43,724 bases of DNA. Origin: Bacteroidales bacterium. Its GTDB lineage: Bacteria > Bacteroidota > Bacteroidia > Bacteroidales > UBA7960. Both the position numbers and the translations under genes were made by a program. Below the pieces are notes generated by a model that saw only the letters and a list, made by a program, of their open reading frames with translations, made no database searches and had not been told where the DNA came from. The DNA is taken from NCBI GenBank assembly GCA_046484145.1, contig JAWOBS010000285.1:1-43724 (forward strand). Direction: 5' to 3'. Positions 36,971 to 41,992 of the stretch are shown here, in pieces (position 1 is the stretch's first letter; every line of letters begins with the position of its first letter).

Positions 36971-37003
36971 TTTGTTTTTTTTTGTCAGTTTTTCTTAACT
37001 TTG
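36971..37003 (+). promoter_or_regulatory. candidate Bacteroidota -33/-7 promoter for the plus-strand biosynthetic operon
   Basis: TTTG (36971-36974), a 21-nt spacer, then TAACTTTG (36996-37003). This fits TTTG-N19-21-TAnnTTTG and implies a 5' leader of about 160 nt before the ACP start at 37172. Confidence 0.45.
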
Positions 37004-39400: not shown

Positions 39401-39820
39401 ATGCTCGCTGCTGCAGAAGAAATACTGAAATATATTCCACAAAGGCCTCCTTTTGTTTTTATCGATAAGCTGTTTAAAGCTGATGAAGAATCTCTTGTTT
39501 CCGGCTTTTCAATAAAGAAGGATAATCCTTTATTGATAGATAATAAACTCTCAGAAAGCGGGCTTATTGAGAATATTGCTCAAACTGCTGCTGCCGGCAT
39601 AGGATATAAATGTATAGCAAATGGCAAAGCTGTTGTGCCGGGATTTATCGGTGCTGTAAAAAAGCTGAAAGTCAATAGCTTGCCCGAATGTGGCGAAGAA
39701 ATTGTAACTACAGTTAAAGTAGTTAGTGAAGTAATGAATGCAACCATTATTCACGGTGAAGTAGTTTATAATAGTGAAGTTATTGCAGAGTGTGATATGA
39801 ATATCTTTCTCCAGGAATAA
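39401..39820 (+). CDS. hotdog-fold 3-hydroxyacyl-ACP dehydratase (aryl-polyene type)
   Basis: 139 aa. YIPQRPPFVFIDKL, then GLIENIAQTAA, typical of the small FabZ-related dehydratases of aryl-polyene/flexirubin loci. Confidence 0.78.
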   Translation: MLAAAEEILKYIPQRPPFVFIDKLFKADEESLVSGFSIKKDNPLLIDNKLSESGLIENIAQTAAAGIGYKCIANGKAVVPGFIGAVKKLKVNSLPECGEEIVTTVKVVSEVMNATIIHGEVVYNSEVIAECDMNIFLQE

Positions 39821-40431: not shown

Positions 40432-40905
40432 ATGAAGGAAAATGAATTATATGTTGACTTTAAGCCTCAACAAGCTATTTATTACGTTGAAAAAGATGAT
40501 AGCTCTTATGGCCCGATAGTTAGCGGTTCTCAACTTTCTCACGACTATCTGGACGACTTTTATAAAAAGAAAATAGGCCTAGAGAAGGATTTGAGAGATA
40601 AGCTGGCAGATAATAAGATTAGCCCGGTTTATTATTATATGCTTCTGCAAGAGATTGGTGTTGGCGATCTTGCATCAAGGGTAGGTGTTACTAAGAGAAG
40701 GCTTAAGAAGCACTTTAAACCTGAAGTTTTTAATAAATTATCTTTGTCAAAAATTAAAAAATATGCAGAGATTTTTAATGTACCGCTTAGTGCGATGTTT
40801 CAAATTGTCACCGTTAAGGAGGATGATAAAAAGCAACTTAAAATAGAAAACCTAAAGACAAAAAATGATTGCTTTGAATTTTTCAGGATAGGGGTTAAAG
40901 GTTGA
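40432..40905 (+). CDS. hypothetical protein with central XRE-like helix-turn-helix
   Basis: 157 aa. aa about 70-125, IGVGDLASRVGVTKRRLKKHFKPEVFNKLSLSKIKKYAEIFNVPLSAMF, resembles an XRE/Cro-type HTH. The N-terminal 65 aa are unrecognised. The TGA stop is the first unit of the hexamer repeat. Confidence 0.6.
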   Translation: MKENELYVDFKPQQAIYYVEKDDSSYGPIVSGSQLSHDYLDDFYKKKIGLEKDLRDKLADNKISPVYYYMLLQEIGVGDLASRVGVTKRRLKKHFKPEVFNKLSLSKIKKYAEIFNVPLSAMFQIVTVKEDDKKQLKIENLKTKNDCFEFFRIGVKG

Positions 40906-40947
40906 GGTTGAGGTTAAGGTTAAGGTTAAGGTTAAGGTTAAGGTTAA
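40893..40947. repeat. hexanucleotide microsatellite (GGTTRA)n
   Basis: GGTTAA a GGTTGA GGTTGA GGTTAA x6. Eight contiguous perfect-phase units span 40900-40947, with one extra unit at 40893-40898. Read directly from the sequence. Confidence 0.97.
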
Positions 40948-40987
40948 TTGTTAATAATCAATTATATTTTTCTTAATATATTTTACA

Positions 40988-41992
40988 ATGAATAAGGTTA
41001 TTGATTTTAAACATAAAATGGCAGCCCATTGCGAAACGGGAACTTTGACAGCATTGCTTAATTATGGAGGTTTAAATATTACAGAGCCAATGATATTTGG
41101 CATAGCTAACGGGATATTTTTCGGCTATATGGATAGTGATGCTTTTCCATTTCCCACAATAATTGTAAGAAGCAGGCCCGGGCAGGTCAGGAAAAACATT
41201 GCTTCAAGGCTGGGAATTAAGCTTAAGCAGTTTAAATTTAAAAACCGGGAAAAAGGTATTGCAACTTTAGATGAGCTTATTAGTAAAGATATTCCCGTTG
41301 CTGCACAGGTTGATTTTTTCTATATGGATTATATGCCTGATTGGCAAAGAGTACATATCAATGTACATTTTATTATTATTGTTGGGAAAAAGGATGACAA
41401 ATATGTTATTAGTGATAGCTATTTCCCGAAGATTACTGAACTTAATGAAGAATTAATGGAGAAAGCCAGGTGGGCAGGCGGAACTATGGCTCCAAAAGGC
41501 TTTTTATATTATCCTGAAAAGATACCTGCAGAAATTGACCTGAAGAAGCCAATAATAAAAGGAATAAAAACAGCATGCAGAAATATGATAGGCCTGCCTG
41601 TGCCTTTTATTGGCGTGAAAGGTATTTATAAATTTGCAAATAAAGTTAAGGAATGGCCGACAATTGCCCGCGACCAGGAGCATCTTTCTCATGAAATAAT
41701 GAAAATTAATGTTTTACTTGAAGATCAAGGTACAGGCGGCGCCGGATTTAGGTTTATGTATGCGTCTTTTCTGCAACAAGCCTCTGAGGTTCTAAACAAC
41801 AATGACCTGGCTGATATGTCAAAAAGAATGATGATTAATGGTGACGAGTGGAGAAATATTTCTTACTTTGCAGCTAAAATTGGAAAAAACAGAGATCTTG
41901 GAAAAGAGCGTCTTGAAGAACTTAGTGAACTTATCAAAAAAAGAGGCGATGAGGAGAAATCTTTTTTTACTGAATTAAAAAAAATGGTGTAA
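40988..41992 (+). CDS. BtrH N-terminal-like / DUF4872-like protein (papain/C39-like fold, putative ACP-dependent acyltransferase)
   Basis: 334 aa. N-terminal MAAHCETGTLTALLNYGG, with a Cys positioned as I recall for BtrH_N domains. Later blocks INVHFIIIVG and ISDSYF. The call comes from recollected motifs plus adjacency to an ACP, so it needs an HMM check. Confidence 0.68.
   Translation: MNKVIDFKHKMAAHCETGTLTALLNYGGLNITEPMIFGIANGIFFGYMDSDAFPFPTIIVRSRPGQVRKNIASRLGIKLKQFKFKNREKGIATLDELISKDIPVAAQVDFFYMDYMPDWQRVHINVHFIIIVGKKDDKYVISDSYFPKITELNEELMEKARWAGGTMAPKGFLYYPEKIPAEIDLKKPIIKGIKTACRNMIGLPVPFIGVKGIYKFANKVKEWPTIARDQEHLSHEIMKINVLLEDQGTGGAGFRFMYASFLQQASEVLNNNDLADMSKRMMINGDEWRNISYFAAKIGKNRDLGKERLEELSELIKKRGDEEKSFFTELKKMV

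Follow-up and report, generated by a model that had tools for sequence, protein, structure and literature searches.

Is the hexanucleotide array that separates two genes of an uncultured Bacteroidales genome a regulatory element of these genes, or a repeat that the locus tolerates? The array lies in a 43,724-nt stretch of DNA (in the following called the window), which is contig C46 of a 2.77-Mb MAG with a completeness of 77% and a G+C content of 35%. A sequence-only reading of this window had offered three answers. The array could tune a downstream promoter through slippage, it could serve the XRE-like protein encoded immediately upstream as an iterated operator, or it could be a neutral microsatellite. 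The following features of the window bear on the question.

40432..40905, plus strand: 157-aa gene with weak Cro/C1-type HTH hints; its stop codon TGA at 40903-40905 is the TGA of array unit 1
40893..40898, plus strand: out-of-phase GGTTAA, 1 nt off the array phase, within the native last codons GGG GTT AAA (Gly-Val-Lys)
40900..40947, plus strand: (GGTTGA)2(GGTTAA)6 tandem array, established by sequence, TRF and shuffles and identical in the independent contig L066
40948..40987, plus strand: AT-rich spacer of 40 nt between array and start codon, with two TATATTTT words
40988..41992, plus strand: BtrH_N + DUF4872 gene (Pfam BtrH_N 5.4e-37, DUF4872 1.2e-45)

The GGTTRA array and its flanking genes

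The array was read directly from the sequence of the plus strand, where two GGTTGA units are followed by six GGTTAA units in strict phase. A single extra A at position 40899 separates it from the GGTTAA at 40893-40898. TRF described the tract with a period of 6, 9.0 copies and 93% matches, and its score of 87 was the top score in the window. The composition that had been reported for the array and for the additional GGTTAA was thus confirmed. As a control, the window was shuffled 100 times. A search for (GGTTRA)3 with up to 2 mismatches gave 7 overlapping matches in the window, all of them at the array, against 0.03 expected. With head-to-tail units in the range of 5-11 nt and a length beyond chance, the tract is a long simple sequence repeat (LSSR).

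The array is in phase with the stop codon of the 157-aa ORF, and therefore the frame of ORF 40432-40905 reads Gly-stop eight times, beginning with the TGA of the first unit. This had been noted from the letters and it holds. The stop codons of the array are confined to this one frame. It had also been argued that gain or loss of units would be unable to alter the upstream ORF. This is correct, because the unit is a multiple of 3 and each unit brings an in-frame stop. The G-rich strand of the array is the sense strand of both flanking genes. A coding repeat was considered and rejected: no ORF of at least 40 aa runs across the array, and the Val-Lys/Glu frame stops at 40952-40954.

For the 157-aa protein, no Pfam family was found above threshold. 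Residues 78-124 matched HTH_19 with E=0.019, and homologues of the protein gave sub-threshold matches to HTH_26, HTH_3 and HTH_60. On its 3' side the BtrH_N/DUF4872 gene is followed by ACP, sulfotransferase and B12-binding radical-SAM genes (Pfam PP-binding, Sulfotransfer_3 and B12-binding). The array site is the junction of two sub-arms of the cluster, with polyene-lipid genes upstream and the BtrH-like/ACP/sulfotransferase/radical-SAM arm downstream. Between 37172 and the end of the window there are ten plus-strand genes with only 5-90 nt between neighbours, an arrangement consistent with one long operon. A 139-aa ORF at 39401-39820 gave no Pfam match in our scan. The precomputed annotation of a conspecific contig assigns it to PF22817 (ApeP-like), which supports a cluster of the aryl-polyene lipid type.

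Orthologous junctions carry no array

We compared the region where the 157-aa gene meets the BtrH-like gene in four congeners (G001-G004), in three sister-genus genomes and in about 25 metagenome contigs with a BtrH-like protein of 48-81% identity. None of these 7 genomes and about 25 contigs has a tandem array at the orthologous junction, where the genes either overlap or leave a gap of at most 45 nt. The congeners have a spacer of about 25-36 nt, which is near the length of the 40-nt spacer that follows the array in the window. In the sister genus and in many of the metagenome contigs, stop and start codons overlap or nearly touch. Such tight junctions free of arrays indicate that the two genes are an old, tightly coupled pair. 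They likewise indicate that the array is a recent, species-specific addition inside the putative operon.

The ends of the orthologous proteins locate this addition. They read ..IGVKK* in G002, ..IGLKK* in G001 and ..VGLKGKE* in G003 at the same place, and the window protein ends in ..IGVKG*. Thus, the first array unit provides both the last sense codon of the 157-aa gene and its stop codon. The GGTTAA at 40893-40898 is native coding sequence, is also present in relatives and may have been the proto-unit from which the array grew; the matching coding sequence is GGGTTAAAA in G001 and GGAGTTAAG in G002.

Conservation of this pairing, a small HTH-like gene next to a BtrH_N/DUF4872 gene, is wide, and in many cases the stop codon of one overlaps the start codon of the other. 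A paralogous second pair, with 38-40% identity, was seen in the same genomes (loci considered besides the window: L068-L098, G009:C249, G023:C153 and G002:C80). The pairing suggests that the HTH-like small protein works with the BtrH-like enzyme and is not simply a regulator of the cluster.

The array in conspecific assemblies

An independent MAG contig (L066) carries the identical 2+6 array and agrees with the window at 99.8% identity (7 mismatches in 3474 nt). Therefore, the array is not an assembly artefact. The unit number at this site is the same in the two MAGs. We then named the unit types in Logan contigs by position 5 of the unit (A or G). Contigs from SRR31660263 and SRR31660264 open with A,G,A,A.. 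and the contig from SRR29699989 opens with A,A,A.. at the array. All Logan contigs from SRR31660263, SRR31660264, SRR29699989 and SRR29700000 end inside the array. The site thus carries an array in no fewer than five further conspecific samples, and three or more unit patterns were seen. The pattern differences between strains (1 in 28 nt) are not above the flank divergence of 1.3%, and alone they are therefore no proof of hypermutation.

Outside these samples, no conspecific was found in JGI metagenomes, where the best match was 81% identical. Exact-protein look-ups for the genes that flank arrays at C81 and C182 of the same MAG gave no matches.

Promoter and structure signals at the array

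We scanned the locus for signals through which the array could act. No TTTG-N17-23-TAnnTTTG pair was found on the plus strand of the window downstream of 36971-37003. The site at 36971-37003 (plus strand) holds the only promoter-like pair on the plus-strand arm, TTTG-N21-TAACTTTG. Overall, the TTTG-N17-23-TAnnTTTG pattern was observed 6 times against 5.2 expected, which is not above chance. The AT-rich spacer contains TATATTTT at 40963-40970 and again at 40977-40984; both words are without the conserved final G of TAnnTTTG. A sigma-70-type scan of the spacer at 40948-40987 gave a match on the minus strand only. These scans gave no canonical Bacteroidetes promoter pair near the array.

No terminator-like site was found at the array. 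RNA folding was not better than for shuffled sequences (z=0.79), DNA folds were at about 0 kcal/mol, and no Rfam family was found in the window. A terminator, a hairpin or a structured RNA is not supported. With the G-quadruplex option of ViennaRNA, no quadruplex was predicted for the array, whose unit has GG tracts only; (GGGTGAT)8 was predicted positive in the same way. A telomere-like end was rejected as well, the arrays being internal to contigs.

Repeat arrays across the genome

The array had been described as having nothing comparable elsewhere. This is true within the window, but it fails for the genome as a whole, in which 2-3 other GGTTRA arrays were found, a degenerate one included.

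C131:11214-11249: GGTTRA array of 6 units
C244:15688-15741: GGTTRA array of 9 units (5 GGTTAA, then 4 GGTTGA)
C182:10420-10462: degenerate GGTTRA array

A conspecific MAG contig at the C244 locus starts just beside the array. When the whole MAG was analyzed with TRF, 86 non-overlapping arrays with units of 6-9 nt and at least 4 copies were detected. Heptamers, mostly G-rich, dominate among them, with 14 arrays of GGGTGAT, 10 of GGTATCA, 7 of GGGTATC and 5 of GGGTGAC. Examples of the 86 arrays lie at C12:4786-4880, C22:2012-2130, C65:15762-15862, C81:1007-1128 and C131:12113-12172. The arrays are intergenic in 70 of the 86 cases (81%), compared with a genome of which 89% lies in called ORFs and 11% is non-coding. 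For this count ORFs were called crudely, as the longest non-overlapping frames. Arrays were found in housekeeping contexts, namely at lptB, ispF and groEL. The convergent spacer after groEL (C182:10124-10727, about 600 nt) alone holds at least five different short tandem arrays, including CAGATCA/CCGATCA, TAACCT/TAGCCT, CGTCACC and AGGTATC. Within 150 nt of a contig end lie 27 of the 86 arrays; in practice such arrays break short-read assemblies.

GGTTRA repeats in the family and beyond

To place the unit in a wider frame, related genomes were searched for four GGTTRA units with at most one mismatch. Such arrays turned up in 29 of the 61 family genomes, which belong to 7 of the 11 genera. The reversed GGTTRA pattern, used as a control, gave 0 matches in every genome. 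The arrays in family genomes reach about 40 units. Within one genus the number of pattern matches ranged from 0 to about 200 between sister species. This patchy genus is g4, with G042, G070, G072 and G068 set against G007, G016, G046, G050 and others. The spread suggests burst-like proliferation or loss. Five GGTTRA units in a row were found in 4 of 300 other sampled genomes of the phylum, and three of these 4 have several loci. GGGTGAT arrays were found in the window MAG alone among the 61 family genomes. Their absence from the 60 others makes the heptamer repertoire species-private, in contrast to the shared GGTTRA.

In a census of 609 units from 58 arrays, 315 were GGTTAA and 193 were GGTTGA, with no other variant exceeding 15; the census is partly biased by the search pattern. 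Among 2.9 million viral contigs (IMG/VR), 23 contained six GGTTRA units (L145-L167). These matches include several giant-virus MAG contigs with the array at the contig end. Coding sequence can carry the unit too: at one locus (L062, G003:C82) a GGTTGA/GGCTGA array falls within an ORF of 686 aa on the other strand, where its product would be a Ser-Thr/Ser-Ala repeat. Searches for literature on GGTTAA/TTAACC arrays in Bacteroidetes found none. As far as these searches reach, the GGTTRA unit and the arrays of this Bacteroidales family are undescribed.

The same genomes allowed us to ask for the 157-aa protein. A homologue is absent from 13 array-rich genomes, and 4 genomes with a homologue carry 0-1 arrays. 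The occurrence of the arrays is independent of the HTH-like protein.

Arrays follow a positional rule and turn over quickly

The position of 58 GGTTRA arrays from 12 genomes was surveyed, with ORFs taken as the longest non-overlapping frames. Of the 36 arrays that have an ORF on either side, 29 lie closer to it with the 5' edge of the G-rich strand than with the 3' edge (p=3e-4). The median distance from edge to ORF is 7 nt on the 5' side and 70 nt on the 3' side. When the 5' neighbour is a co-oriented gene, the edge lies at most 10 nt from its stop codon in 11 of 19 cases, the window array among them. When it is a leftward gene, the edge lies at most 10 nt from its start codon in 11 of 22 cases, which places (TYAACC)n just before the ATG. 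In contrast, a sense-oriented GGTTRA array stands at most 10 nt before a downstream ATG in only 1 of 22 cases. Arrays at loci L050, L053, L057, L104, L118, L126, L127 and others of the relatives were noted alongside this contrast. At other loci, sense-oriented arrays often leave 10-29 nt before the ATG. The RNA of (TYAACC)n before an ATG would be C-rich and free of G, and a role in initiation or Rho loading is conceivable.

All strand-skewed arrays of the window genome, taken together, have the same polarity (25 of 33, that is 25 versus 8; p=0.005). Divergent spacers contain 5 arrays versus 12.6 expected by spacer length and are thus depleted, but when spacers are counted instead, the shortfall does not reach significance (p=0.055). 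Convergent spacers are enriched in arrays by DNA length; by number of spacers this is again not significant. Of 65 array edges that look towards the 3' end of a gene, 19 come to within 5 nt of its stop codon; for edges facing a start codon the count is 0 of 44. Nucleation at stop codons is not claimed as a special rule, since most spacers are about 40 nt long and part of this closeness is expected anyway.

The heptamer array before an lptB-like gene (C131:12113-12172) has 8.6 units in the window MAG. In contigs from SRR31660262 and SRR31660263 it has about 3 units, and two further samples show other unit orders. The LptB protein is identical in all samples compared. Similar changes were seen between species in the convergent spacer of lptB and ispF. 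This spacer contains (TTAACC)6 in the window genome (G000), (GGTTAA)2.5 + (GACTTAC)5 in G001, (GGTTAAT)5 + (GACTTAC)3 in G002, another repeat in G017 and no array in G003. The differences between strains and species point to a quick turnover of arrays and to some spacers that are prone to repeats. The proposal of a slippage-prone tract that tunes a promoter thus stands in part. The microsatellite nature is borne out by a class of arrays found throughout the genome and by the heptamer with about 3 versus 8.6 units, whereas a promoter role is not.

Comparison with known repeat systems

Cyanobacterial STRR heptamers are short tandem repeats comparable to those described here. A close match in behaviour was found with the GGGNATC and GGGGA(C/T)T heptamers of Xanthomonas and Nostoc, whose arrays also stand closer to the ORF to which the 5' end of their G-rich strand points (Rehm et al. 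2015, PMC4692102). Both GGGNATC and GGTTRA form dispersed arrays of short units that are strongly non-coding, prefer gaps between co-oriented ORFs and are under-represented between divergent ORFs. Both lie nearer to the 5'-side ORF whatever its orientation, including overlaps with stop codons. Length and sequence vary among close relatives in the Xanthomonas and Nostoc arrays and, here, in the heptamer array before the lptB-like gene and in the lptB-ispF spacer. In both systems arrays flank unrelated genes, without an assigned role. The GGGTATC heptamer of the window genome is itself of the GGGNATC type. GGTTRA differs in being a hexamer with GG tracts only and no predicted G-quadruplex, and in its uncultured Bacteroidales host. 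As its unit is a multiple of 3, it also has stops in only one frame per strand. The quadruplex subclass of Rehm et al. (2015) has at least four G3+ tracts, and the GGTTRA array is predicted to fall outside it.

TAACTGA direct repeats occur in marine Beggiatoaceae, some Cyanobacteria and five Bacteroidetes, with a sporadic spread (MacGregor 2015, PMC4679880). Like them, the GGTTRA units contain TAA/TGA, are intergenic and are scattered across lineages. Both systems include long arrays in Bacteroidetes, and in both some arrays lie over an upstream stop codon while facing the downstream gene. TAACTGA places stops in three frames and its forward arrays mostly end a few nt before start codons. In contrast, GGTTRA has stops in one frame, and its sense orientation lies at least 10 nt from start codons, the reverse orientation being the one near an ATG. 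With GGTTRA as unit and a gap of 40 nt to the start codon, the array of the window lies outside the TAACTGA family.

As far as the account in PMC4679880 goes, LSSR with 5-11-nt units are phylogenetically scattered, and polymerase slippage has been proposed for them (Mrazek et al. 2007). The window genome agrees with this picture, being rich in arrays of 6-9-nt units in which heptamers are dominant. Loci with the same GGTTRA unit are dispersed in the own genome and in related genomes, and they share the non-coding bias and the 5'-side polarity. A different type of repeat is known from Moraxella catarrhalis, where the AGAT tract of uspA2 and the poly-G of uspA1 are phase-variable repeats in the promoter or 5'-UTR (cited in PMC4679880). 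Like the window array, these tandem repeats precede a start codon, and in either case the number of units could in principle tune expression. They differ in that the window array stands at a junction within a putative operon and belongs to a class that flanks housekeeping genes.

Weighing the explanations

The array could be a tunable spacer, that is a contingency locus or rheostat. By gain and loss of units it would change the intercistronic distance, or the geometry of a weak internal promoter, and so set the expression of the BtrH-like/ACP/sulfotransferase/radical-SAM arm relative to the upstream polyene-lipid genes. Its location exactly where the two sub-arms of the cluster meet fits this proposal, as do its persistence in five or more conspecific samples, among which three or more unit patterns were seen, and the length differences among arrays of its class between strains of the species. 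The AGAT tract of uspA2 is a documented precedent for a repeat in a 5'-UTR (cited in PMC4679880). Two TATATTTT words also lie 3' of the array, but they are without the final G of TAnnTTTG, no canonical Bacteroidetes promoter pair follows 36971-37003 on the plus strand, and the junctions of relatives leave no room for a promoter. Moreover, arrays occur in the housekeeping contexts of lptB, ispF and groEL, as Rehm et al. found for their repeats, and divergent spacers, which bear promoters, hold fewer arrays than expected by length (5 versus 12.6; p=0.055 by number). We consider a tunable spacer unlikely on balance. Less probable still are iterated sites for a family-wide trans-acting DNA- or RNA-binding factor, of which this locus would be one target in a post-transcriptional or nucleoid-level regulon like that proposed for TAACTGA repeats. 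A unit with a restricted R dimorphism is conserved across genera and distant lineages, its orientation is constrained ((TYAACC)n near start codons in 11 of 22 cases versus 1 of 22 for sense GGTTRA), and its spread within genera is patchy and burst-like. These observations would agree with a shared reader. Yet no candidate factor was identified, the functions of the flanking genes are unrelated and array positions are not conserved between species. Moreover, the positional rule extends to units of unrelated sequence, both within this genome and in other phyla. This argues for a general mechanism or a general tolerance, and against a reader specific to one unit.

The proposal of an operator for the 157-aa HTH-like protein drew on the array adjoining its gene and on weak, sub-threshold hints of a Cro/C1-type HTH. 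It did not survive the comparison of genomes. The orthologous pairs in 7 genomes and about 25 metagenome contigs are free of arrays, and protein and arrays do not co-occur, with 13 array-rich genomes devoid of a homologue and 0-1 arrays in the 4 genomes that have one. The array also consists of direct repeats without dyad symmetry. These findings largely refute the operator, and we give it hardly any credence. At this locus, both the promoter-geometry and the operator stories are unsupported. An assembly artefact would account for the 27 of 86 MAG arrays within 150 nt of a contig end and for Logan contigs that end inside the array. We regard it as practically negligible, because an independent MAG contig runs through the whole array and shows the same structure, the left flank leads into the array in five more assemblies, and its 48 nt are below the typical read length. 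Of the answers offered at the outset, the neutral microsatellite comes closest, but it misses the recurrence of the unit across the family and the positional rule.

A probable slippage-generated repeat tolerated at a stop codon

We therefore favour, with reasonable though limited confidence, the reading that the tract is a slippage-generated LSSR whose presence at a stop codon is tolerated, and one copy of a GGTTRA repeat family scattered through this genome and about half of its family. A dedicated switch or operator is improbable. On this reading, replication slippage in this species would have created the array, probably with the GGTTAAAGG proto-repeat among the final codons of the 157-aa gene as its seed. 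The array would thereby have replaced the last sense codon and the stop codon of this gene. It would be tolerated because the unit is a multiple of three with an in-frame TAA or TGA in each copy, so that the upstream protein is unchanged by gain or loss of units, and because the AT-rich region of about 40 nt before the next start codon is left intact. The array would be transcribed as an unstructured (GGUURA)n spacer inside the polycistronic unit. The sole local effect would be a wider intercistronic gap, from about 30 nt to 82 nt, and the array would be close to neutral.

Neutral slippage alone does not explain why GGTTRA, with its A/G dimorphism at position 5, is found at many loci, in several genera and in distant lineages. 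It does not explain the 0 to about 200 pattern matches among sister species either. That the array is kept at its site in at least five conspecific samples counts against the neutral reading as well. The recurrence of the unit and the bursts are reasons to keep a tunable-spacer role in view as an outside chance, and a shared reader as a fainter one. On a bolder reading, GGTTRA arrays throughout the family would be active elements, hypermutable spacers of constrained orientation that either are recognised by a common trans-acting factor or act directly on translation initiation or Rho access. This is doubtful. If it were true, (UYAACC)n would sit before start codons and (GGUURA)n after stop codons. 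The array of the window would then be a strain-variable valve that uncouples the BtrH-like/ACP/sulfotransferase/radical-SAM arm from the polyene-lipid operon.

For the gene cluster, preferring a tolerated slippage repeat removes a regulatory story that was tempting but unsupported: the array is no conserved operator, and no promoter element can be demonstrated in it. For the uncultured Bacteroidales family, the analysis describes a shared GGTTAA/GGTTGA hexamer family that exists alongside species-private heptamers. The polarity of such arrays is found across phyla and is followed here by a unit without a predicted G-quadruplex, which argues that the polarity is independent of quadruplex formation. 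Ideas on what such repeats do are thereby constrained in a modest but useful way.
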